A stretch of DNA of 64,000 nucleotides. Source: Candidatus Woesearchaeota archaeon. GTDB taxonomy: Archaea > Nanobdellota > Nanobdellia > Pacearchaeales > GW2011-AR1. The first letter of the stretch is position 1; each line of letters starts with the position of its first letter. The notes below the pieces were generated by a model, which saw nothing but the letters and a program-made list of their open reading frames with translations, searched no databases and was not told the origin of the DNA. Shown here piece after piece: positions 206 to 60,915 of this stretch. Location of the stretch: positions 19,399-83,398 of the forward strand of contig CAZTCF010000001.1 of the NCBI GenBank assembly GCA_964612685.1, written 5' to 3'. The position numbers and the translations under genes were made by a program.

Positions 206-340
206 GGTCCCATAGTTTAATGGTAGAACATGTCCTTGACGATGTAAGGCACCAAGGTTCCTTGACAATCAACCTCCTTTAAGGAAAGTGAGATAAACAT
301 CAAAATGGACAGGGTTGCAGTCCGATTCTGCATGGGACCA
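206..340 (+). tRNA. tRNA-Val(GAC) with 64-nt canonical intron (242-305)
   Basis: Acceptor GGTCCCA/TGGGACC plus A; D arm GTTT-AATGGTA-GAAC; anticodon stem TGTCC/GGACA; T arm TGCAG-TCCGATT-CTGCA. The intron follows position 37. A bulge-helix-bulge is readable: TTGA (236-239) pairs with TCAA (300-303), flanked by 3-nt bulges CGA and AAT. Confidence 0.8.
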
Positions 341-683: not shown

Positions 684-995
684 ATGAAAATTCCAAAAAC
701 AACTAAAAGATTTTGTCCTTATTGTAAGAAAAAGACAGAACAGAAAATAAAATTAGTTGGAACAGGATTCCAGAGAGGGACACTTACAAGAGGTTCAAAA
801 TATAGGGCTAAATTAAGGGGATTAGCTAGAGGAATAGGAAATAAAGGAAAATGGGGTTCTAAGCCTGCAGCTTCTAAATTCAAGAGAAAATCAAAAACAA
901 CTAAAAAAACAAATATGATGTACACCTGCAAAGTCTGCAATAAATCTAAATACCAAAAGAAAGGTATCAGACTAAGCAAACAAGTACAGGAGTAA
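684..995 (+). CDS. rpl44e: 50S ribosomal protein L44e (eL42)
   Basis: MKIPKTTKRFCPYCKKKTEQK...YTCKVCNKS has two CxxC pairs and very basic composition, typical of archaeal L44e. The internal ATG at 684 is chosen over the upstream extension of ORF 588..995. Confidence 0.85.
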   Translation: MKIPKTTKRFCPYCKKKTEQKIKLVGTGFQRGTLTRGSKYRAKLRGLARGIGNKGKWGSKPAASKFKRKSKTTKKTNMMYTCKVCNKSKYQKKGIRLSKQVQE

Positions 996-1763: not shown

Positions 1764-1819
1764 GCCTGTATAGCTCAGTGATAAGCTCAGATTAACATCT
1801 GGCTAAATCACTTTAGGCA
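1764..1819 (+). other. tRNA-like leader element: copy of the first 20 nt of tRNA-Thr plus a TAAC-loop hairpin and acceptor-like 3' strand
   Basis: 1764-1783 is identical to 1826-1845. Possible pairings are GTGAT/ATCAC, AGC/GCT and CAGAT-TAAC-ATCTG. TTTAGGC+A pairs 6/7 with GCCTGTA. Confidence 0.6.
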
Positions 1820-1825
1820 TAATAA

Positions 1826-1897
<72 letters not shown>

Positions 1898-4141: not shown

Positions 4142-4492
4142 TTACAAATCTATAACGCCTTCTTTTGTCAAGGCAGCAAATCTTATTCCAACGGGGAGGT
4201 TAATTAATGCAGATATAAGGGCCATATGCTCTTTTCCTTCTCCACTAGCAATAGATAGAGCAACTTCAGTCCCATCTATTTTATTTTTAAGTTTTTTTAG
4301 AAATTCTTCTCTAAGTTCTTTTATTTTTGCCTTTAAGTCTACTTTTATGAATTCAAACTTCTTTTCATGGGTAAACCCTGTACCAAATTCGTCACCAATG
4401 ACTATTATTTTGTCCCATTCCCCGTGTTTCATAAGTCCTGAAACCTGTCCCCAGCTTCCTTTCCCTGTTGAGAGTAGAGCAACCAATTCCAT
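4142..4492 (-). CDS. hypothetical protein (small Rossmann-like/CARF-like look, unassigned)
   Basis: 116-aa ORF. MELVALLSTGKGSWGQV...IIVIGD has an alternating beta-strand/Gly-loop pattern. It lies 1 nt from both neighbours. Confidence 0.5.
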   Translation of the reverse strand: MELVALLSTGKGSWGQVSGLMKHGEWDKIIVIGDEFGTGFTHEKKFEFIKVDLKAKIKELREEFLKKLKNKIDGTEVALSIASGEGKEHMALISALINLPVGIRFAALTKEGVIDL

Positions 4493-6804: not shown

Positions 6805-7449
6805 TTACTTTTTTAGATAATCGGGAATTTCAAATTTATTGAATTCTTCAAAAAGATTCTTTCCAAATTTTAACCTATAAATTGCTTCACCTTCAAGCGC
6901 ACAATCTTCTAGGGCTGTATGATACTTCCCTTCTCTAACAATTTCATTACCTTTAACATTAATTCTTTCATCGGGAATCCCACAAAATTCTAGGATCTTC
7001 CCAAGATTAAATGCACTTTGACCTGTTTCTTTCAAGAGATATTTTTTATTTATTTCAAAATATCTTTCTTGTGCTAAAGTATGTAAATCCATACCTCTTT
7101 GCATATGAATCTCAAGAAATTTCTTATGTAAATCATACTTAATTGATTTAGCTTGAATCATGCTTATATCCCAAGCAACATTTTGTCCATAAAATAATTT
7201 ATTTTCTTGCATACTCACCCAATCAAGATAATTTTCAATTAATTGATTTTGAGGTTGTTTATTTTTATCTTTTAGAATATCTAAATTCCTTCCATTAACT
7301 CTCATAGCCCCTTCAGTAATCAAGTCATCATCATCAATTTTACAATCCTGAAGAAAAGTGTTAGAATGATCATCTGTATTTATTGCACCTATCTCGCAAA
7401 TACCACAATCATTAGTTAATCCTGTTGTTTCAATATCTAAAATAATCAT
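6805..7449 (-). CDS. DEDD-type 3'-5' exonuclease (DnaQ/RNase T-like)
   Basis: MIILDIETTGL (ExoI), NVAWDISM (ExoII-like) and YHTALEDC (ExoIII with His). Confidence 0.7.
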   Translation of the reverse strand: MIILDIETTGLTNDCGICEIGAINTDDHSNTFLQDCKIDDDDLITEGAMRVNGRNLDILKDKNKQPQNQLIENYLDWVSMQENKLFYGQNVAWDISMIQAKSIKYDLHKKFLEIHMQRGMDLHTLAQERYFEINKKYLLKETGQSAFNLGKILEFCGIPDERINVKGNEIVREGKYHTALEDCALEGEAIYRLKFGKNLFEEFNKFEIPDYLKK

Positions 7450-10093: not shown

Positions 10094-10094
10094 A

Positions 10095-10231
10095 CGCCGT
10101 AACCAGGAATCGAACCTGGAAATCCTTTCGGATCACGATATTTGGGTTTACCCTGGATAGGAAAGCTTACAAAAGAAACTGGGGGTGTCTTTTGTTTCCA
10201 ATCGTGTGGAGTACCATTGTCCCATTACGGC
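10095..10231 (-). tRNA. tRNA-Ser(GGA), type II, with 56-nt canonical intron (10195-10140)
   Basis: Minus strand: acceptor GCCGTAA/TTACGGC plus G; 3-bp D stem; anticodon stem CACGA/TCGTG with loop TTGGAA|intron|A; variable arm ATCC-GAAA-GGAT; T arm CCAGG-TTCGATT-CCTGG. The BHB helix TTGG/CCAA is flanked by bulges AAA and ATA. Confidence 0.75.
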
Positions 10232-10316
10232 ATGCAAAAGATTAGAAATTCTTTATTTTAAAATCTATTTCCAATTTACTAAATGGTTATAAACCAATTC
10301 TTTTTTTAGTAAGTTC

Positions 10317-13414: not shown

Positions 13415-13939
13415 TTAGGTTCTTATCCAGCTTACTTCATAATAGGAAACATCTGATTCTTCATCAATTATTGCTAAAAGGAGATTCTTTTTTGTAGAGT
13501 GTGCAACCCTGTTTTTTGAAGCAAACTCGTGCCAGGAGAATTTTTTGGATTCATGTTCACAAAATACAATCCACTTTGCATGTTCTTCATCTGGGGTTGT
13601 TCCTTTTTCATAAACTCTGAAATCTGCTCCAAATTTTAAAGCAGTTTTTACAACATATCCTTTATCTCTTAAATCTTTGAATACCGGATATTTTAATTGT
13701 ATTTTTGAATCAATCTTTTTGAAAGTCTTTAATAACTCTTCAAATGGGATGCTCTTTTTTCCTTTTATAATCTCTATTTTCCCCTTTTCAACAAGGTATA
13801 ATGCTTCAGCTAGAGCGTATTGAATTTTTTGGTTTATAGGTTGTCCAAAATTTGATTTTTTATACAATGTAAAAGCATCAGCTTCATTTGTTGAAACAAT
13901 TTCTCCCAGCAGGTATGTTTTTATTTTGTTCATCCACAT
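13415..13939 (-). CDS. endA: tRNA-splicing endonuclease EndA
   Basis: LAEALYLVEKGKIEI...FKDLRDKGYVVKTALKFGADFRVYEKG...HAKWIV matches the catalytic domain pattern. At 174 aa it is the size of a single-unit enzyme. Confidence 0.85.
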   Translation of the reverse strand: MWMNKIKTYLLGEIVSTNEADAFTLYKKSNFGQPINQKIQYALAEALYLVEKGKIEIIKGKKSIPFEELLKTFKKIDSKIQLKYPVFKDLRDKGYVVKTALKFGADFRVYEKGTTPDEEHAKWIVFCEHESKKFSWHEFASKNRVAHSTKKNLLLAIIDEESDVSYYEVSWIRT

Positions 13940-44748: not shown

Positions 44749-44838
44749 TAAGTAGTTTAGTTATTAAGTATTATAAGGTTTTTTAATAGGGGTAAACTTT
44801 AAATAAGGTTTTAATTTTCAATTCTTAAATAAGTATAT

Positions 44839-44898
44839 GCCCTGGTTGCTCAGTTGGTTAAAGTTCTAACGAACAAACCATCTTCACCACCTAAGGTA
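44839..44898 (+). other. tRNA-like leader element: copy of the first ~22 nt of tRNA-Asn plus a GTTC-TAAC-GAAC hairpin and acceptor-like 3' strand
   Basis: 44839-44860 matches 44909-44930 at 21/22. TGGTT (44855-44859) pairs with AACCA (44876-44880). CTAAGGT+A pairs 6/7 (including 2 G-U) with GCCCTGG. Confidence 0.6.
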
Positions 44899-44908
44899 AT
44901 AAATATGT

Positions 44909-44982
44909 GCCCTGGTAGCTCAGTTGGTTAGAGCGCACGACTGTTAATCGTGAAGTCGTAGGTTCGAGTCCTACCCGGGGCG
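44909..44982 (+). tRNA. tRNA-Asn(GTT)
   Basis: GCCCTGG TA GCTC AGTTGGTTA GAGC G CACGA CTGTTAA TCGTG AAGTC GTAGG TTCGAGT CCTAC CCGGGGC G. Confidence 0.9.
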
Positions 44983-44984
44983 CT

Positions 44985-45497
44985 TTATTTTTTCTTAACT
45001 CCTTTTAACCCCAAGTCTGTAATTGGTTCTATCTTATGTTTTTCAAGGTAGGAGTATACATTAGAATGTTTTGAACCTTTTATCAGAAGTTTGCAAGCTT
45101 CTTCTACGTTTCTAATACTTTCAGAATCTCCTATAATTCCTAACTTGTTTCCAGAAAGTTCAACATGACAATTGCTTAAGTTTGAAATTGTCTTTAGGGC
45201 TTTACCATCCTTACCTATTACTCTTCCCCTTACCCTCTCAAAATCTTTCTGATTAGTAAATTCTTTTATATTTAATATTTCAAACAAAAAATCTTCTTTT
45301 TTTATGTTAAGAGCATCTGAAAAAGGGAAACCAAAATCAAGAGCTTCAATAACTCTTTCTGCGATATACTCATTTTCAGATTCTCCTGAAATTGAGACTT
45401 CTTTTCCATTAATTTCTAGAAGTACATCTAACTCTTTTTCAAGATTTTTTTTATTCTTTATTATCCTTATTATCTTTTCTGAGATTATTTTTTTCAT
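44985..45497 (-). CDS. KH-domain RNA-binding protein (archaeal Dim2/Pno1-like)
   Basis: RGRVIGKDGKALKTI is the GxxG KH motif, and a second KH-like half is present. 170 aa. Confidence 0.65.
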   Translation of the reverse strand: MKKIISEKIIRIIKNKKNLEKELDVLLEINGKEVSISGESENEYIAERVIEALDFGFPFSDALNIKKEDFLFEILNIKEFTNQKDFERVRGRVIGKDGKALKTISNLSNCHVELSGNKLGIIGDSESIRNVEEACKLLIKGSKHSNVYSYLEKHKIEPITDLGLKGVKKK

Positions 45498-45527: not shown

Positions 45528-47066
45528 TTAACTCTGGCATCCAGCTAAGGTTTCCCATAACTGATAGCTATCTCCTATTTCAATATCGGTTATTCCTGTT
45601 GAGACTTGTATAACTGTATATTGTCCTGGATTAATTGGGTAGTCCATTTTTAATACAGGATAACAACGAGAGTATATACTTGTTATTCTTACATAATGTG
45701 CATCATTTAGTATGGTTTGTTCTGATGTTTCTCCAAATTCAGGTAAGTTACTTCCTGTAAGGAAATTGTGTCCTATTGGTACTGGCCAGACAGAAGTTAC
45801 AGTTCCGGAATTTAAACTTGTTTCTGGAGCTACACAAATACCATTTATACAGGTTTCTGGTAGGGTACATTCCCCACAAGATTCTCCACACCCATTCGGA
45901 ACATCTCCACATTCAGTTCCGGTTTCAAGACAGTTATCATCACACATTACACATATCCCTGTTGTAAAGTTACATTCTTCTGGCAAGATGCAATTTCCAC
46001 AAGTTCCACCACATCCATCCTCTCCGCACTCTTTACCAATACAATCAGGAGTACATAGTTCACATATTCCACTTTCATTACAAAAATAATTTGAACCATA
46101 TTCATATTCGCAATCTCCTCCAAATGTTCCACAAGTTCCACCACATCCATCCTCTCCGCACTCTTTTCCTATGCAATTTTCTATAGGGTTACAATCCGCT
46201 TGACATATTCCTCCTACGTTGTGTTCTCCTACTAAACAACAAATTCCCCCATCACACCATCCGCTACTACATGTTCCACATTCATTTTCGTCTCCGCATC
46301 CATTTGGAGCTGCACCACACATTTGATCTCCACAATTTGGTTGAATTATTCCAGGACAGCTTCCTTCACATCCGTCTGAGCAGCTTGTTCCAGTACAAAT
46401 TGTTGATGAGCAAGCACAGTTTGCCACACAAGGTTCGGTTGTTGTTGTACAACTTCCTGAAACGCACTCTTCCGGACTTGTACAGCTTCCGCAACTTCCA
46501 AAGCATCCATCATCTCCACAATCTTTTCCTGCACAATTCGGAACACAACCCGGGTCTGGCTCTCCCTCTCCTTCTCCAGGGTCTCCTTCTCCTCCAGAAC
46601 CAGTGTAATAAACATAATATGTATCTTGAACATCTCCTGTTATTGTTTTTCCAGAACTGGTTGAGAATACCGGAGAGATAGACACACTAACTATATTTCC
46701 AGTATATGGGACGGGAAACGTTGTTACTTCAAATTCATCAAATGTCTCTCCTGGAGGTATATTATTTGTAAAGACATATGAATCTCTCCCATCAAATATA
46801 GATATAATTATATCATTTAATTCTCCCGCACCGGCATTTCTTCTTATTTTTATTCCTGTAGAATTTGGATCAGAATAAACATCTGAGGGATAAACTTTTA
46901 CTATTTCTAGACTAATAGTGAATTGTCCTAATGAAATTGATTCTGCATTGTTTTTTATAACTGTTCTTATAACCCCCCAAACTATTGCAATTGCAACTAT
47001 AACAAGAAGAATTATTAAAAGGGTTGCGACAACTGTTGAGAGACCTCTGGTATCACCTTTTTTCAT
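45528..47066 (-). CDS. surface protein with archaeal type IV pilin-like (class III) signal peptide and Cys-rich CGxDGCGGxCG repeats
   Basis: MKKGDTRG|LSTVVATLLIILLVIVAIAIV is pilin-like. The central region carries at least five repeats such as CIGKECGEDGCGGTCG. Confidence 0.7.
   Translation of the reverse strand: MKKGDTRGLSTVVATLLIILLVIVAIAIVWGVIRTVIKNNAESISLGQFTISLEIVKVYPSDVYSDPNSTGIKIRRNAGAGELNDIIISIFDGRDSYVFTNNIPPGETFDEFEVTTFPVPYTGNIVSVSISPVFSTSSGKTITGDVQDTYYVYYTGSGGEGDPGEGEGEPDPGCVPNCAGKDCGDDGCFGSCGSCTSPEECVSGSCTTTTEPCVANCACSSTICTGTSCSDGCEGSCPGIIQPNCGDQMCGAAPNGCGDENECGTCSSGWCDGGICCLVGEHNVGGICQADCNPIENCIGKECGEDGCGGTCGTFGGDCEYEYGSNYFCNESGICELCTPDCIGKECGEDGCGGTCGNCILPEECNFTTGICVMCDDNCLETGTECGDVPNGCGESCGECTLPETCINGICVAPETSLNSGTVTSVWPVPIGHNFLTGSNLPEFGETSEQTILNDAHYVRITSIYSRCYPVLKMDYPINPGQYTVIQVSTGITDIEIGDSYQLWETLAGCQS
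45995..46166. repeat. 40-nt perfect direct repeat (45995-46034 and 46127-46166), 132-nt period, inside the pilin-like gene
   Basis: TTCCACAAGTTCCACCACATCCATCCTCTCCGCACTCTTT occurs twice. On the minus strand it encodes the duplicated KECGEDGCGGTCG module. Confidence 0.9.
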
Positions 47067-50372: not shown

Positions 50373-52445
50373 TTAGAAAACTCCAATATATCCTTTTTTT
50401 GGTCTGTAAATCTCATTGTCTTTTATTAATCTGTTTATTATTTCTTCTAATTCGTCTTTTCCAATCTTGTCTTCTAATTCTTTTTCTATCTCCTCATAGG
50501 GAATCATCTTACCCATCTTTCCTTCAAGCGCGGTTATAACTTCTTTAACAGTGAATATTCTTGTTCTTTGGGAGGAAGAAAATTTCCCTGAAATTTTATC
50601 AATATCAAAAGTTTTTGATTCATAATCATATCCTACTTGCATAAGGTAATATTTCATTAATTCTATTGCTTGTTTTGCATCTTCTCTTGAAACTTCTTCG
50701 CTTAGTCTTAATCTTGCAGAGGCTTCTGCCATTCTTACAAGTGCCTGCAATTGTCTTGCTGAGATAGGTATAGGCCTCATAGCACTTTCAGACATAACCG
50801 GTTTGTTTCTTAGTTCAACATAGAATCTTTTAAGCTCTTCAACTGCATCTGAGCTCAATATTGGATTCACTTTTTGTTTCGCATATGCAACATATTTTCT
50901 CAATAAATTTGAATCAATTAGAACTTCTTTGGTGTCTTTTTGATGCTCCTTCAAAACATGGGCAGCAATTCTTTCATCTTTGTTTCTATCTGGCAAATCT
51001 CTTAATGTAAAAATTATATCGAATCTATTTATAAGTGTGGGAGGCAAATCTATTTGTTGTGGAATTGGCATAAAAGGGTCAAATCTCCCGAATTTAGGGT
51101 TTGCAGCTGCAAGAACAGAAGTTTGTGCCTTAAGAGATGCTTGTACATTAGCTTTAGAAATTGTAACTGTTTGCTGTTCCATTGCTTCATGCATGGCGCT
51201 TCTATCTTGAGGGTCCATTTTTTCTAATTCATCTATACAAACTAAACCTTTATTTGCCAGGACCATAGCTCCTGCTTCAAGGCTCCATCCTTTAAGGTAT
51301 TCATCTCTTACTACTGTTGCAGTCAATCCTGCTCCTGATGCCGATTTACCCACAACATATCTTCCTTTAGGGGAGATGTTTGACATAAATACAAGAGTTA
51401 CACTTTTAGCAACTCCTGGATCTCCTATAAGTAGAATATGTATGTCTCCTCTGGATTTTGAACCATCTGACATCTTTTTTTGAACCCCTCCAAATAGTTG
51501 TAAAATTAAAGCTTTTTTTATTTCTTCATATCCCCAAACACTTGGGACTATGCTCTTTGCTAAGTTTTCAAATATTTTTGGATCTTCTGACAATTCATGA
51601 ATTTGTTTTTCATCTTCATCTGTTATATCCAATTCTTCGAAAGTTTCTTCCATAGGAATAATATTGTTAGCTTCTACTGCTAGTTCAAATCTTGTTGATA
51701 ATCCTCCTGTGCTTAAGGGTACAGGAACTTCTTTTAATATCCCTATGACCTTTATCTTTGCTCCAGGGGTAGTTTTATCCTCCATTTTTGGTTCAACTAA
51801 ATCTTCTTTCACAAATATGTTCATTCTCTTTGGTTGTTCTCCTCCAGAAAGAGATTCTGGAGATTCTTCAATTACTAATCTTTGAGTATCAACCATATCT
51901 TTTGATATCAACCTAAATCCCCCTCTTCTACCACAAGAACATCTGCTAGGTTCTCTGAATTTCTTTTCAATTTGTAACACTGCTATCACGGTTCCACAGC
52001 TAGGGCATTCAAATTTAGCATTTACAACCTGTGGACGGACATCCGATGCTTGTCTTATTATTCCTTCAAGGATAACCAACTCGTTTAAGTGTTTTGAACG
52101 TATATTTCTTATTTTTATTTGGTGGGCTTCTGAAAGATTTTTTAAACGTACACGTGCATTTTTTACAAGTCCAAGTTCTTCAACTGCAAGTTCGATTATA
52201 CTTAAGGTTTCTTCAGGGTTAGTTATTATTTCATCTGAGAGTTTATTTGAAAACTCTGTGAGTTTCATAAAATCAAGATAAATTACATTTGTTTTCTTAC
52301 GTATAGATTCTCCCAAATCTTCTTTGTTGAAATTAAAGAAATTCTTTGCTTCTATGATTAATTCTTCTGATCTTGGCTTTTTTTTCTGATCTGTCTCAAA
52401 ACTTTCTCTAGAACTTTCCTCTTCTGAATAACTACCTTCTTCCAT
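50373..52445 (-). CDS. mcm: MCM replicative helicase
   Basis: Zinc motif CPSCG...CSCG, Walker A ILLIGDPGVAKS, Walker B CIDELEKM, and the arginine finger region SRFDIIF-like (NRFDIIF). Confidence 0.93.
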   Translation of the reverse strand: MEEGSYSEEESSRESFETDQKKKPRSEELIIEAKNFFNFNKEDLGESIRKKTNVIYLDFMKLTEFSNKLSDEIITNPEETLSIIELAVEELGLVKNARVRLKNLSEAHQIKIRNIRSKHLNELVILEGIIRQASDVRPQVVNAKFECPSCGTVIAVLQIEKKFREPSRCSCGRRGGFRLISKDMVDTQRLVIEESPESLSGGEQPKRMNIFVKEDLVEPKMEDKTTPGAKIKVIGILKEVPVPLSTGGLSTRFELAVEANNIIPMEETFEELDITDEDEKQIHELSEDPKIFENLAKSIVPSVWGYEEIKKALILQLFGGVQKKMSDGSKSRGDIHILLIGDPGVAKSVTLVFMSNISPKGRYVVGKSASGAGLTATVVRDEYLKGWSLEAGAMVLANKGLVCIDELEKMDPQDRSAMHEAMEQQTVTISKANVQASLKAQTSVLAAANPKFGRFDPFMPIPQQIDLPPTLINRFDIIFTLRDLPDRNKDERIAAHVLKEHQKDTKEVLIDSNLLRKYVAYAKQKVNPILSSDAVEELKRFYVELRNKPVMSESAMRPIPISARQLQALVRMAEASARLRLSEEVSREDAKQAIELMKYYLMQVGYDYESKTFDIDKISGKFSSSQRTRIFTVKEVITALEGKMGKMIPYEEIEKELEDKIGKDELEEIINRLIKDNEIYRPKKGYIGVF

Positions 52446-59047: not shown

Positions 59048-59350
59048 TTATTTCCTTTTAGCTAATATCTTATTAATCTTTTTTTGGTTTAATATCTCAT
59101 AAGTTCCAGTCCATCCCTCTATCACATCTTTACCTTTTGTATCTCCTATTGCTAAGATATTTTCTCTTTTTACAAACTCGGATAAAGAATGATGTCCGTA
59201 TAGGAAATGGACCAGTACTTCTCTTATTTCTCCTTTTTCTTTATATATCTCGGTTATATTATCTACAATTATTTCGTCTGGTTCTCCCCCGTGGTAGTTA
59301 AAACCAAATGCAATGTAATCTCCATTTGTTAGTTTATCTATTGATTTCAT
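59048..59350 (-). CDS. hypothetical protein
   Basis: 100-aa ORF. Confidence 0.4.
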   Translation of the reverse strand: MKSIDKLTNGDYIAFGFNYHGGEPDEIIVDNITEIYKEKGEIREVLVHFLYGHHSLSEFVKRENILAIGDTKGKDVIEGWTGTYEILNQKKINKILAKRK

Positions 59351-59397
59351 ATTTTTTTGTGGGGTAAACTATTTTTAAGAATTATTGTGCTAAATGT

Positions 59398-60003
59398 TTA
59401 TTTTAAAGGCTTAACATATCTTCTTCCAGAATTGGGTATTGGTTTTTGCCCAGCTCTTCTGCTCGGTCTGTTTTTGTTTGTTGGATCCTTGCTTCTTAAT
59501 CCTCTTGATTTTTTAGCTGAACTTGTTAGTCCTCTAAATACTCTATTTCTATTTGAACCCTTTGCTGTCCAATTTATTGTTTTATCATTTTTTATTTCTG
59601 GTCTTTCAGGGTCGACACAAATTACTTCGTAGAAATAATTTATTCCATCCTTTCCAACTTCATATGAGTTTAATACTTCAAGATTTTTGTGTTTAGCTGC
59701 AACTCTTTGTTCAGCAATCCATTTGTAAGACATTTTCAAGTTTTTTCTAGTATGCATTCTTTTTCCTCTTCTTCCTTTTATAGGTCTAGGACGTTTATGT
59801 CCTCCTCTTTTTACTCTAACTCTTATTATTGTGAATCCTGTTTTGTCTTTATATCCCAAAGCTCTTGCTCTATCTAATCTTAAAGGCTTTTCAACATTTA
59901 TCTGTGTTGGTTGTGCTCTCCATTCTTCCATTCTTTTTGAAAGAACTTTTGAGTCAGGTTTTTTCCAAGCTTCTTTTATATAGTGATACATTCCCTTTGC
60001 CAT
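59398..60003 (-). CDS. rpl15e: 50S ribosomal protein L15e
   Basis: MAKGMYHYIKEAWKKP...RLDRARALGYK...RVRVKRGG. Confidence 0.92.
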   Translation of the reverse strand: MAKGMYHYIKEAWKKPDSKVLSKRMEEWRAQPTQINVEKPLRLDRARALGYKDKTGFTIIRVRVKRGGHKRPRPIKGRRGKRMHTRKNLKMSYKWIAEQRVAAKHKNLEVLNSYEVGKDGINYFYEVICVDPERPEIKNDKTINWTAKGSNRNRVFRGLTSSAKKSRGLRSKDPTNKNRPSRRAGQKPIPNSGRRYVKPLK

Positions 60004-60705: not shown

Positions 60706-60780
60706 TGAGGCTGCACAGATTTGAACTGTGGACCCCGGCCTTATCAGAGCCGTGCTCTAGCCAGACTGAGCTACAGCCTC
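60706..60780 (-). tRNA. tRNA-Ile(GAT)
   Basis: Minus strand: GAGGCTG TA GCTC AGTCTGGCTA GAGC A CGGCT CTGATAA GGCCG GGGTC CACAG TTCAAAT CTGTG CAGCCTC A. Confidence 0.9.
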
Positions 60781-60791
60781 ATTGTTGTTTT

Positions 60792-60853
60792 TGAGACATT
60801 CTTCTCAGGATGGCTTGTTCGTTAGAACTCTAGCCAGACTGAGCTACAGCCTC
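60792..60853 (-). other. tRNA-like leader element: exact copy of the first 26 nt of tRNA-Ile (plus 7 nt of upstream flank) followed by a GTTC-TAAC-GAAC hairpin
   Basis: Plus-strand 60828-60860 is identical to 60755-60787 (33 nt). On the minus strand TGGCT pairs with AGCCA, CTCAG pairs with CTGAG, and ATGTCTC+A pairs 5/7 with GAGGCTG. Confidence 0.6.
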
Positions 60854-60915
60854 ATTGTTGGAATTAATTGAACAATTCAACAGAAAAAAGCATATTAGAA
60901 TCTTTATAAAAGTTA

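Follow-up and report, generated by a model that had tools for sequence, protein, structure and literature searches.

Upstream of three transfer RNA (tRNA) genes in the stretch of archaeal DNA analyzed here (64,000 nucleotides, 31% GC, referred to as the window), i.e., those for tRNA-Asn, tRNA-Ile and tRNA-Thr, an element is found in which a copy of the 5' part of the tRNA is followed by a short module that is predicted to form a hairpin. At the tRNA-Asn(GUU) gene, the segment 44839-44860 (GCCCTGGTTGCTCAGTTGGTTA) repeats the first 22 nucleotides (nt) of the tRNA (44909-44930, GCCCTGGTAGCTCAGTTGGTTA), where the sole mismatch is located at tRNA position 9. This 21/22 match was described in an initial annotation of the window, in which all quoted coordinates and strings are correct (including TGGTT, GTTC-TAAC-GAAC, AACCA, CTAAGGT and TTTTAATT); the repeat in fact extends over 36 nt (44828-44863 and 44898-44933; 89% identity and spacing 70, identified using a repeat finder). 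The copy leads into a fold-back hairpin with three helices: P3 (GUUC/GAAC) carries the UAAC cap and is separated by a 3x1 internal loop, AAA/A, from P2 (UGGUU/AACCA), beneath which lies P1 (AG/CU), a weak helix in Asn. The 39-nt hairpin is predicted to fold as originally proposed, with a minimum free energy of -8.2 kcal/mol (z = -2.56).

The corresponding element upstream of tRNA-Ile displays a repeat of 33 nt (100% identity, spacing 73), which is composed of 7 nt preceding position +1 and nt 1-26 of the tRNA, and its hairpin, CUCAG-UC-UGGCU-AGA-GUUC-UAAC-GAAC-A-AGCCA-UC-CUGAG, is predicted at -16.2 kcal/mol (z = -3.8). At tRNA-Thr the repeat comprises 20 nt (100% identity, spacing 62) and the hairpin is a variant (AGUGAU/AUCACU, AGC/GCU, CAGAU-UAAC-AUCUG; -15.2 kcal/mol, z = -4.2) with the anti-acceptor sequence UUUAGGC. 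As noted initially, a 21-nt block of the Asn leader recurs upstream of tRNA-Ile with a single A-to-G change; this module is all that the two leaders have in common, and their spacers are unrelated. No self-copy is found at the remaining tRNA genes of the window, i.e., Arg-UCG, Val-GAC and Ser-GGA (the latter two with introns).

An assembly artifact is ruled out by eight independent assemblies, obtained from different samples, in which the Asn leader does not differ by a single base, and a chance origin was rejected in view of ~35 loci elsewhere with the same architecture. The upstream copy and hairpin match no Rfam family even at E <= 10 (two leaders scanned), which indicates that the leader is not a member of a tRNA or tRNA-like family, and at the gathering threshold a search of the window with Rfam returned nothing except the tRNAs. 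Coordinates are collected in Table 1.

Table 1. Features of the tRNA-Asn locus and of related loci in the window
Feature	Position	Strand	Basis or remark
tRNA-Asn(GUU), functional gene	44909-44982	+	ARAGORN; Rfam RF00005 at 73.9 bits (threshold 29)
Self-copy of tRNA-Asn nt 1-22 (21/22)	44839-44860	+	U9 replaces A9 of the tRNA
Direct repeat, upstream member: 11 nt preceding +1 and copy of tRNA-Asn nt 1-25	44828-44863	+	Repeat finder
Fold-back hairpin P1/P2/P3	44849-44887	+	Covariance model R1, 59.1 bits, E = 6e-11
P3 core GTTC-TAAC-GAAC, UNAC-class tetraloop	44863-44874	+	Same at tRNA-Ile (60817-60828) and ~30 DPANN loci
Copied D-loop TGGTT	44855-44859	+	Sequence inspection
Anti-D-loop (anti-D) AACCA, complement of copied and real D-loop UGGUU	44876-44880	+	Covariation
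Weak anti-acceptor CTAAGGT, 6/7 with two G-U pairs	44891-44897	+	Predicted fold
Repeated short native leader AATAAATATGT, abutting the tRNA 5' end	44898-44908	+	Part of the 36-nt repeat
Oligo-T tract TTTATTTTTTCT, likely archaeal terminator	44984-44995	+	Sequence
TATA box TTTAAATA with upstream AAAC bases resembling a B recognition element (BRE); conserved in orthologous tRNA-Asn loci	44798-44805	+	Sequence and orthologs
Second TATA-like TTTTAATT at -30 to -23 of the copy, candidate box	44809-44816	+	Sequence
Sister element upstream of tRNA-Ile	60804-60860	-	Repeat finder; covariance model R1, 61.9 bits
tRNA-Ile(GAU)	60706-60780	-	ARAGORN, Rfam
Sister element upstream of tRNA-Thr	1764-1818	+	Repeat finder, fold
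tRNA-Thr(UGU)	1826-1897	+	ARAGORN, Rfam
tRNA-splicing endonuclease, single alpha-type, 174 aa, N and C domains	13415-13939	-	Domain scan

A recurrent leader in DPANN archaea

The combination of self-copy and hairpin is a real, recurrent unit that is found at dozens of loci in DPANN archaea (kingdom Nanobdellati; loci outside the window are referred to by L numbers), and the initial view of three loci understates the family, which is large, forms tandem arrays, is polymorphic in presence and absence, and has cores that are specific to lineages. An exact 19-mer, AGTTCTAACGAACAANCCA, matched 14 times in the GTDB species representatives (596 Gb). Six of these matches are bacterial, scattered and without a tRNA nearby, i.e., due to chance, and eight are found in metagenome-assembled genomes (MAGs) of DPANN archaea (six Woesearchaeota, one "Diapherotrites" and one Iainarchaeum), each of them directly 5' of a tRNA-Lys gene and behind an exact copy of its first ~21 nt. 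A metagenome scan with the pattern GCTCAG-N4-10-AGTTCTAACGAACA, which leaves the D-loop and its complement unconstrained, yielded 23 loci, 22 of them genuine, before tRNAs Lys-UUU, Lys-CUU, Asn-GUU, Thr-GGU, Ile-UAU and Arg-UCU. In total, these pattern scans place the element at ~30 DPANN loci outside the window, at Lys, Asn, Ile, Thr and Arg-UCU tRNAs; a variant is found at tRNA-Glu. The extended hairpin follows the consensus CUCAG-YY-UGGUU-ANA-GUUC-UAAC-GAAC-A-AACCA-YY-CUGAG, where P1 is formed by C13-A14-G15 (with or without U12 and C11) and CUG(AG), P2 by the D-loop and its complement (anti-D), and P3 is the capped core; the z-scores range from -2.4 to -4.2 across loci. The covariance-model search suggested at the outset was performed with a model (R1) built from 25 distinct units. 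With this model, 412 kb of DPANN sequence yielded 41 units at E < 1e-4, each of them directly 5' of a tRNA, and no significant match away from tRNAs.

The leaders are 60-260 nt long. Tandem arrays of at least two units, often two or three, are common (L002, L007, L015/L017, L018, L028, L033, L034, L036 and L037), and the number of units is polymorphic within one species, where a GTDB genome (L012) harbors one unit and the metagenome contigs L018, L028 and L037 harbor two identical units with the same flanks. The 60-nt tRNA-like minihelix that was proposed for the Asn leader, in which the spacer pairs back to the copied acceptor strand, would depend on a pairing that is weak in Asn, and it is not a general feature, as spacers may be as short as 5-7 nt (L035, L007). 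A clean 6-bp acceptor pairing is seen only in L137 (CAAGGG/CCCUUG), at the same distance from +1 (11 nt) as CTAAGGT of the Asn locus.

The main core is found only at tRNAs that decode ANN codons, i.e., Lys, Asn, Ile, Thr and Arg-UCU. A strict limitation to ANN-decoding (t6A37) tRNAs was nevertheless rejected, as it is confounded by the GCUCAG...UAGAGC D-arm that these tRNAs share and is broken by the variant at tRNA-Glu(CUC), which shows that the architecture is not confined to this group. The latter gene (L017 2696-3000 (-)) has a 127-nt intron, a GUUC D-stem and, 101 nt upstream, an exact 15-nt 5' self-copy, which leads into the hairpin AAAAGTT-TAAC-AACTTTT and another, partial copy of the D-loop. 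The UAAC loop thus caps three unrelated stems, i.e., GUUC/GAAC (Asn, Ile, Lys and others), CAGAU/AUCUG (Thr) and AAAAGUU/AACUUUU (Glu). Its sequence, U-N-A-C closed by a canonical pair, is that of a UNAC tetraloop, a class attributed to Zhao et al. 2012 as cited in PMC12550061; the variants UAC (L138) and UUCAAU (L137, L143) demonstrate that this loop is not obligatory. Other known RNA motifs were considered and rejected. A box C/D guide RNA would require a C or C' box, which is lacking, and the CUGA that follows the anti-D in many units is replaced by CUGU, CUGG, CUUA or CUUC elsewhere, including the window Asn locus. On inspection, the 3-nt bulge is not followed by the G-A/A-G pairs of a kink-turn, and a mimic of the T-arm or anticodon arm is incompatible with flanks of GUUCUAACG that cannot form a T-stem and with a loop of 4 rather than 7 nt. 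No description of the element was found in searches of the literature on DPANN/Woesearchaeota tRNA leaders, RNase P and tRNA gene disruption. The self-copy hairpin leader is real and widespread and, apparently, a kind of pre-tRNA leader not described before.

Archaeal TATA boxes lie only upstream of the first copy. In the window Asn locus the conserved TATA block AACTTTAAATAAGGTTTTAATTTTCAATT ends 33 nt before the copy; it ends 23 nt before +1 of the tRNA in L134, which lacks the element, and 23 nt before +1 of the copy in L137, which carries it. The TATA-like TTTTAATT that was pointed out initially is present at its position, but the box that is conserved in orthologs is TTTAAATA. In addition, TTAAATAAG of the TATA-box region occurs twice, 26 nt apart (44799-44807 and 44825-44833 (+)), upstream of the Asn self-copy, and this promoter region contains ~10 extra bases relative to the orthologs, such that the transcription start of the Asn locus is ambiguous. 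No TATA-like box is found at -24 to -31 of the second copy in the Asn, Ile and Thr loci of the window or in the metagenome loci inspected, and an internal promoter in the spacer was rejected on this basis. Because the promoter is located upstream of the copy and none is seen between the copies, the element is expected to be part of the primary transcript. On the downstream side the tRNA-Asn gene is followed by an oligo-T tract; such tracts are established terminators of archaeal transcription.

The distance from the end of the 8-bp TATA box to +1 of the copy, or to +1 of the tRNA if the element is absent, has a mode of 23-25 nt (L134, L137, L140, L141, L144, window Thr, where the box TTTTAAAG at 1733-1740 ends 23 nt before the copy, and many Lys loci), with outliers at 28-47 nt (window Asn, window Ile, L135, L136, L014 and L138). 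Hence, the copy occupies the place that is held by the tRNA 5' end in element-free genes. For several tRNAs (window Arg and Ile, L135, L136, L138 and L014) the TATA box is located at a distance of 28-47 nt, which implies ordinary short leaders and counts against an RNase P-free state.

Syntenic loci were retrieved through neighboring proteins, i.e., a KH-domain protein (Asn), S3Ae (Thr) and L15e (Ile). Upstream of tRNA-Asn the element is present in the window, L137 and L019/L036 and absent from L134, L135, L136 and L144; upstream of tRNA-Thr-UGU it is present in the window and L138 and absent from L139, L140 and L141; upstream of tRNA-Ile-GAU it is present in the window and, as two units, in L143 and absent from L142 and L144. 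The empty sites are precise, with TATA ending 23 nt before +1 of the tRNA in L134, L140, L141 and L144, the distance seen before the copy in L137 and at window Thr. The distribution looks all-or-none per genome if one considers contigs or species to which two or three of these loci can be assigned: the element is found at three of three such genes in the window and two of two in the ADurb.Bin253 species, and at none of two genes in each of GCA_054083115.1, Ga0619460_10295477 and GCA_050303855.1. The core is specific for the lineage and common to its tRNAs, i.e., GUUC-UAAC-GAAC in the window (Asn, Ile) and GUGC-UUCAAU-GCAC in related genomes (L137 Asn, L143 Ile), where a G-C pair in the core stem takes the place of U-A.

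Covariation, conservation and the functional copy

The exchange of AACCA (Asn) for AGCCA (Ile), which was initially read as a compensatory change indicative of a selected RNA helix, is part of a covariation that extends far beyond these two genes. Over 25 aligned units, 98% of the P2/P3 cells are paired, as compared to 21-52% after a shift of the 3' partner by 1-3 columns, and the covariation score exceeds that of 500/500 shuffles. At the variable P2 pair, 17 units have U-A, five C-G, one A-U and one U-G, whereas the pair is broken in one unit, i.e., the position that differs between Asn and Ile follows the D-loop nearly always (24/25), with exceptions in L024 (C-U mismatch) and L031 (first unit, which is generally degenerate); L016 displays a G-U pair. 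At the second P2 pair U-A is replaced once by C-G (Thr-GGU, CGGUU/AACCG). Switches are also seen at one and the same tRNA gene in different genomes: UGGUU/AACCA in the window vs UGGCU/AGCCA in L036 (and in the anti-D of L137) for Asn, UGGCU/AGCCA in the window vs UGGUU/AACCA in L143 for Ile-GAU, GUGAU/AUCAC in the window vs GCGAU/AUCGC in L138 for Thr-UGU, and UGGCU/AGCCA in L023 vs UGGUU/AACCA in L025 and L013 for Lys-CUU. The Lys-CUU leaders L023, L025 and L013 share the spacer motif CUGAAUAUUGRGCAA; they are thus homologous by descent, and the compensation must have occurred in place. G-U pairs are tolerated (L016 and copy 1 of L137) and A-C pairs are not seen. Together with the UNAC-class tetraloop and the UAAC loop on three unrelated stems, this signature favors a hairpin that acts as RNA.

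Seven tRNA-Lys(UUU) loci display a mean pairwise identity of 0.60 in the promoter, 0.50 in the spacer, 0.93 in the module and 0.98 in both the copy and the tRNA. The difference between module (0.93) and spacer (0.50) indicates purifying selection on the module; the module is partly fixed by the search pattern, but the anti-D and CUGA, which were free in the metagenome scan, are conserved all the same.

As to which copy contributes to the mature tRNA, position 9 is U in copy 1 of the window Asn locus and A in the tRNA and all its orthologs, copy 1 of L031 mismatches the 3' acceptor strand and lacks G18G19, and position 22 of the copy is mostly A rather than the G needed for the D-stem. The downstream copy is, accordingly, the functional 5' strand, and the upstream copy would thus be under a different constraint, i.e., pairing with the anti-D, as judged from the sequences. 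Strict scans for the bulge-helix-bulge (BHB) motif hBHBh' in Asn (window, L137), Ile and Lys precursors, with and without 3' flanks, gave no motif for which the excision equals the repeat period and none with a cut at +1. A BHB intron in the tRNA was therefore rejected outside Thr, considering also the non-tRNA changes in copy 1. A leader-trailer BHB that releases the tRNA was rejected as well, as none cuts near +1 in the Lys precursors with 3' partial copies, and so were split tRNA genes, as the full tRNA follows its copy at a distance of 62-73 nt on one contiguous stretch, with neither a promoter nor a BHB between them.

Interpretation and alternatives

The explanation that we favor, with a probability of about 0.45, is that the element is a co-transcribed, self-sequestering 5' leader of tRNA-Asn, which is clipped off at +1. 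Transcription would start at, or a few bases before, the upstream copy, a placement that follows from the exclusive location of TATA boxes upstream of that copy. The first ~21 nt of the RNA would then duplicate the 5' strand of the acceptor, the 5' strand of the D-stem and the D-loop of the tRNA, and behind this duplicate would follow the 4-bp hairpin capped by UAAC and the complement of the copied D-loop and D-stem, with, at the Asn, Thr and Ile loci, an additional, weaker complement to the acceptor strand. Such a leader may snap into a rod-like hairpin before the real tRNA is transcribed, and the 3' half of the tRNA would thereby be left to the genuine 5' strand without competition by the redundant copy. 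The tRNA could then fold normally, after which a 5'-maturation nuclease, probably RNase P, would remove the whole leader at +1. Some nuclease must produce the 5' end at the second copy because these seem to be the only genes for essential tRNAs, and RNase P is presumably the default enzyme. At the level of DNA, a partial duplication would have placed a second copy of the 5' third of the tRNA behind the promoter, and recombination between the direct repeats may expand, contract and precisely delete the unit as well as keep the copy identical to the tRNA. Selection on the fold-back would explain the covariation and conservation, and recombination between repeats would explain the arrays, the concerted evolution and the precise losses. 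We infer that the selective value of the hairpin would lie in neutralization of the copy rather than in a positive function.

Several observations weigh against this explanation. RNase P RNA was not found in the ~350 kb scanned and Pop5, Rpp30, Rpp29 and Rpp21 domains were absent from 40 scanned open reading frames (ORFs) of the window and from the genes annotated at ~20 related loci; these negatives count for little, as the sequences scanned are partial genomes, a fraction of each. In many archaea L15e precedes the RNase P subunits Rpp30 and Pop5 (the exosome superoperon). Here, L15e is followed by unrelated genes in four genomes (window 59048-60003 (-), L142-L144), namely a 100-amino acid (aa) ORF without a match in Pfam, NCBIfam or PDB and genes for rubrerythrin and desulfoferrodoxin. 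Furthermore, the 23-nt TATA spacing resembles that of the RNase P-free Nanoarchaeum (N.) equitans (PMC10100707). A hairpin that merely neutralizes the copy leaves unexplained that an easily deleted element persists across DPANN phyla, that one core is common to different tRNAs of a lineage and that the pattern is all-or-none per genome. The estimates of conservation are inflated, as most loci were found with the core as bait, and covariation is by itself no proof of selection on RNA, as template switching at a quasi-palindrome in DNA could equalize the two arms. Finally, the nearest-neighbor ensemble pairs the 3' strand of the tRNA with copy 1 (P = 0.63-0.95). Because the equilibrium model prefers this partner for the acceptor, sequestration must be kinetic or tertiary; equilibrium folding ignores tertiary structure as well as kinetics and was not used as evidence either way. 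Two of the alternatives discussed below, i.e., a module recognized by a factor and a mobile cassette, are kept alive because of the unexplained persistence, lineage-specific cores and all-or-none pattern.

In one of these alternatives, which we regard as somewhat unlikely, the hairpin is a positively selected leader element that is recognized by a lineage-specific protein or RNA and aids or regulates maturation, stability or modification of a subset of tRNAs, where the copy supplies one of the strands. Co-evolution with a trans-acting factor would account for a lineage having its own core that is common to different tRNAs, and it would be consistent with conservation of the core sequence across tRNA types and DPANN phyla, retention of the UAAC loop on three different stems, the all-or-none look, and the persistence of an element that its flanking direct repeats should delete rapidly. 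No candidate factor was identified, however, close relatives lack the element at the same genes, the hairpin may be as near to the cleavage site as 5 nt or as far from it as >60 nt, and some units lack P3 (the distal unit of L016). The occurrence of the main core only at ANN-decoding tRNAs would also fit recognition by a factor, but this link is confounded by the shared D-arm and by the tRNA-Glu(CUC) variant, and the conserved core was itself the search bait. Alternatively, events at the level of DNA may have generated the element, which would then be a small mobile cassette or integrative element in the D-arm region that regenerates the 5' part of its target, or the att-like site of such an element; the imperfect palindrome (D-arm copy, core and anti-D) would be a site of recombination or target recognition, and the covariation would stem from insertion or template switching. 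Direct repeats of a tRNA 5' segment with a few bases preceding +1 are the classic signature of integration at tRNA genes (PMC3293823). The precise empty sites in relatives, the nested or successive inserts at the same place (L005, L020, L016, L031 and L143), the analogous partial copies at the 3' end of tRNA-Lys, the same core in different tRNAs of one genome with unrelated spacers, and the all-or-none look are also as expected from such a process. An att duplication is thus matched by the repeats of 20-36 nt and the syntenic element-free orthologs, but not by a recombinase or a free attP: the inserts are non-coding and only 35-50 bp, ~35 loci have neither an integrase nor a large element between the copies, and no integrase adjoins any locus examined. 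Scans of 2.9 million viral contigs with three core types (A, B and C) gave only chance matches in coding regions or unrelated iterons, none in a tRNA context and none with copy and module, and a virus-borne attP was rejected on the basis of these three scans. In addition, identical tandem units point to unequal crossing-over instead of integration, the D-loop and anti-D switch together in leaders that are homologous by descent, i.e., compensation occurred in situ, G-U pairs without A-C pairs and the UNAC tetraloop point to RNA, and the module is conserved while the adjoining spacer decays. We therefore consider an origin of this kind quite unlikely. A more specific form of it, which appears improbable, is a cassette that spreads among DPANN tRNA genes, where the anti-D would direct it by base pairing to the D-loop of a target gene or transcript and the insertion would regenerate the 5' part of the target; if true, archaeal tRNA introns and split tRNA genes could be born through an intermediate stage of which this family is a living example.

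Another way to read the locus is to take the anti-D as part of a two-state switch, which pairs either with the decoy copy 1, so that the tRNA is free, or with the genuine D-arm, so that the tRNA stays unfolded, and thereby times folding, modification (e.g., archaeosine at G15) or processing. By construction the anti-D is equally complementary to both copies, and where these differ it fits the real D-loop better, i.e., in L137 (AGCCA; real UGGCU vs copy UGGUU) and in L031 (AUCCA; real UGGAU vs copy AAGAU); an archaeosine TGT is encoded near the Asn locus. The L137 case is, however, more simply a tolerated G-U pair, copy 1 of L031 is generally degenerate, the co-transcriptional order favors a local hairpin with copy 1, no signal is linked to the switch, and element-free relatives mature the same tRNAs, all of which renders a switch very improbable. 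Hardly credible, finally, is an arrangement in which the upstream copy is the true 5' exon, transcription starts exactly at its +1, as it does for the leaderless tRNAs of Nanoarchaeota, and what lies from the hairpin up to the second copy is an intron or a retained expansion of the D-loop, with 5'-end formation being independent of RNase P. This scenario draws on the 23-25 nt between TATA and +1 of the copy at most loci, which equals that before +1 of the tRNA in element-free orthologs and matches the -26/-27 placement in the RNase P-free N. equitans (PMC10100707), on the lack of RNase P components in the partial genomes scanned, and on the pairing of the 3' strand with copy 1 in the thermodynamic ensemble. 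At the tRNA-Thr locus (window 1764-1845 (+)) the two copies can even pair with each other; both strands read CUG-UAUA-[GCU]-CAG, which makes a perfect hBHBh' motif, and its excision would remove exactly 62 nt, i.e., the repeat period. The same sequence is found in L138. This motif is taken as a coincidence; it follows from the Thr acceptor sequence, which is found also in element-free orthologs, and the strict BHB scan gave no period-consistent counterpart for Asn, Ile or Lys. A splicing endonuclease is encoded in the window, but it is a single alpha-type protein of 174 aa, and no second subunit is found within the window. Moreover, copy 2 always belongs to a perfect tRNA, whereas copy 1 shows changes unlike a tRNA (A22; in L031, A5 and loss of G18G19; in the window, U9). 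At several loci (window Ile, L014, L020 and L138) TATA and the first copy are separated by 30-47 nt or by 18 additional nt, and arrays of two to three units and distal copies of 8-15 nt are unlike a defined intron.

Relation to known systems and additional observations

Ordinary pre-tRNA leaders are short, unconserved and without a copy of the tRNA. The element shares with them its position between the transcription start and +1 and its presumed fate, i.e., removal by RNase P, and differs in being 60-260 nt long, modular, structured and conserved across phyla. Partial duplications of tRNA genes are found at the borders of integrated elements such as the SSV1 att site, pNOB8-type plasmids and the Caldiarchaeum tRNA-Thr fragment (PMC3293823). 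In common with these archaeal att duplications, a terminal tRNA segment is repeated beside an intact tRNA gene, the repeat is present or absent in relatives, and repeated events are seen at the same gene. In contrast, the leader insert spans 35-50 bp, carries no recombinase, is conserved, covaries with the D-loop, is found in tandem arrays and lies between promoter and tRNA, which means that it is transcribed. The complements of BHB introns and split tRNAs (Nanoarchaeum, Caldivirga) are similar in that an extra sequence is complementary to the adjacent exon and forms a helix with it, and in their sporadic occurrence among close relatives and in DPANN archaea; the leader differs in having no BHB that yields the tRNA (apart from the Thr coincidence), in its location 5' of a complete tRNA and in that the exon is duplicated rather than split. 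RNase P is missing in N. equitans, which has leaderless tRNAs with a promoter box ~26-27 nt before the first tRNA base (PMC10100707). This organism belongs to the same superphylum and its box placement is similar to that seen here at most loci before the first base of the copy or of an element-free tRNA, but the real tRNA is found here 60-75 nt downstream of the start, which requires a 5' processing step. As in UNAC and GNRA-like tetraloops, the loop of four nt, UAAC, is closed by a Watson-Crick pair and kept while the stem changes, a membership that is assigned from sequence alone.

If this description holds, a sizeable fraction of the tRNA genes in several DPANN lineages would be transcribed with a self-complementary leader that contains a self-copy, an architecture absent from Rfam and from the literature on DPANN tRNA leaders that was searched, and the self-copies would be neither pseudogenes nor att scars when annotated. 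A leader of 60-260 nt on essential single-copy tRNAs also raises the question of the nuclease that forms the 5' end, in a group that is related to the only organism that, to our knowledge, lives without RNase P. The origin of disrupted archaeal tRNA genes is a long-standing puzzle. Insertion with duplication, inserts complementary to exons, tandem expansion, precise loss and lineage-specific modules are found here side by side in natural populations, which makes models for the birth of introns and split genes, and for concerted evolution, directly testable, and the hairpin with an arm that tracks the D-loop is a small, well-defined and tractable system. We place the element with pre-tRNA leaders and partial tRNA duplications, with a non-trivial chance that it is something more unusual.

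A number of leaders are more complex than the standard unit. In L005 and L020 a 14-nt copy at the promoter is followed by 140-165 nt and then by a standard unit; between the distal copy and this unit, the two tRNA-Lys(CUU) leaders have in common a hairpin-like block of ~34 nt, GTAGAAATRCTTAAAATRCATTSATTCGCTAC (L005 ~7330-7400 and L020 ~900-970 (-)). A structured insert of 75 nt follows position 14 in unit 2 of L031 and in the L016 distal unit, and in L143 an 8-nt distal copy is followed by a fragment of a Thr-type module. Partial self-copies of the 3' end are found downstream of tRNA-Lys genes (L009 ~1600-1720, L012 ~4366-4480, L002, L013 and L033) and are of two types. In the first, an insert of ~85 nt opens with GATTTGAAC, a complement of the T-arm, and precedes a second CAAATCCCTTCGGGGCCA and the same terminator; in the second, an insert of ~42 nt is followed by a second TTCGGGGCCA. 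Those tRNA-Lys loci that have both 5' units and 3' copies thus read as "5' fragment, full tRNA, 3' fragment". The nested leaders and 3' copies resemble the repeated insertion with duplication at archaeal integration sites (PMC3293823).

As to the host, the window encodes archaeal FtsZ, aIF1A, aIF2-beta, TBP-type neighbors, S3Ae, L1, L10, P1, L15e, SRP54, FtsY and the tRNA-splicing endonuclease, and the nearest relatives of its proteins are labelled Woesearchaeota, Pacearchaeota or Nanobdellota. Downstream of tRNA-Asn, a gene for a Cys-rich, repetitive secreted or membrane protein (45528-47066 (-)) has 132-nt repeats in its interior (45995-46177). Of the eight independent contigs with the neighboring KH-domain gene, seven begin ~500-670 nt upstream of that gene, within the Cys-rich gene, i.e., its 132-nt repeat evidently breaks assemblies. 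The MCM helicase gene of the window (50373-52445, 690 aa) is free of inteins, and those of L137 (1-4299) and L143 (15507-19964) carry LAGLIDADG inteins. In L136 (19026-20337), a relative without leader elements, an Rfam match to RT-16 RNA (94.5 bits) is found beside a reverse-transcriptase gene.

Several tRNA genes of the window and its relatives contain introns. The tRNA-Ile(GAU) gene of L143 (9521-9631) harbors a 37-nt intron at a non-canonical place inside the anticodon stem, at about position 30/31, and was mis-called by ARAGORN as Ile-UAU with an intron after position 37. The tRNA-Ser(GGA) gene of the window (10094-10232 (-)), located between ftsY and srp54, has an intron of 56 nt and was missed by Rfam at the gathering threshold and by ARAGORN at default settings, being recovered only in the intron mode of the latter; its orthologs have an intron in L139 and none in L138 and L140. 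The 64-nt intron of tRNA-Val(GAC) (206-340 (+)), which is absent from the orthologs in L138-L140, holds a near-copy of the anticodon stem-loop, TCCTTGAC, and is homologous to the intron of a tRNA-Lys(CUU) gene in an unrelated metagenome contig (L021 1558-1693), the common sequence being TGTAAGGnACCAAGGTTCCTTrACAnTCAACCTCCTT-AAGGA. From these sequences, the Val/Lys intron looks like a second family of inserts with exon duplication that is common to different tRNAs.

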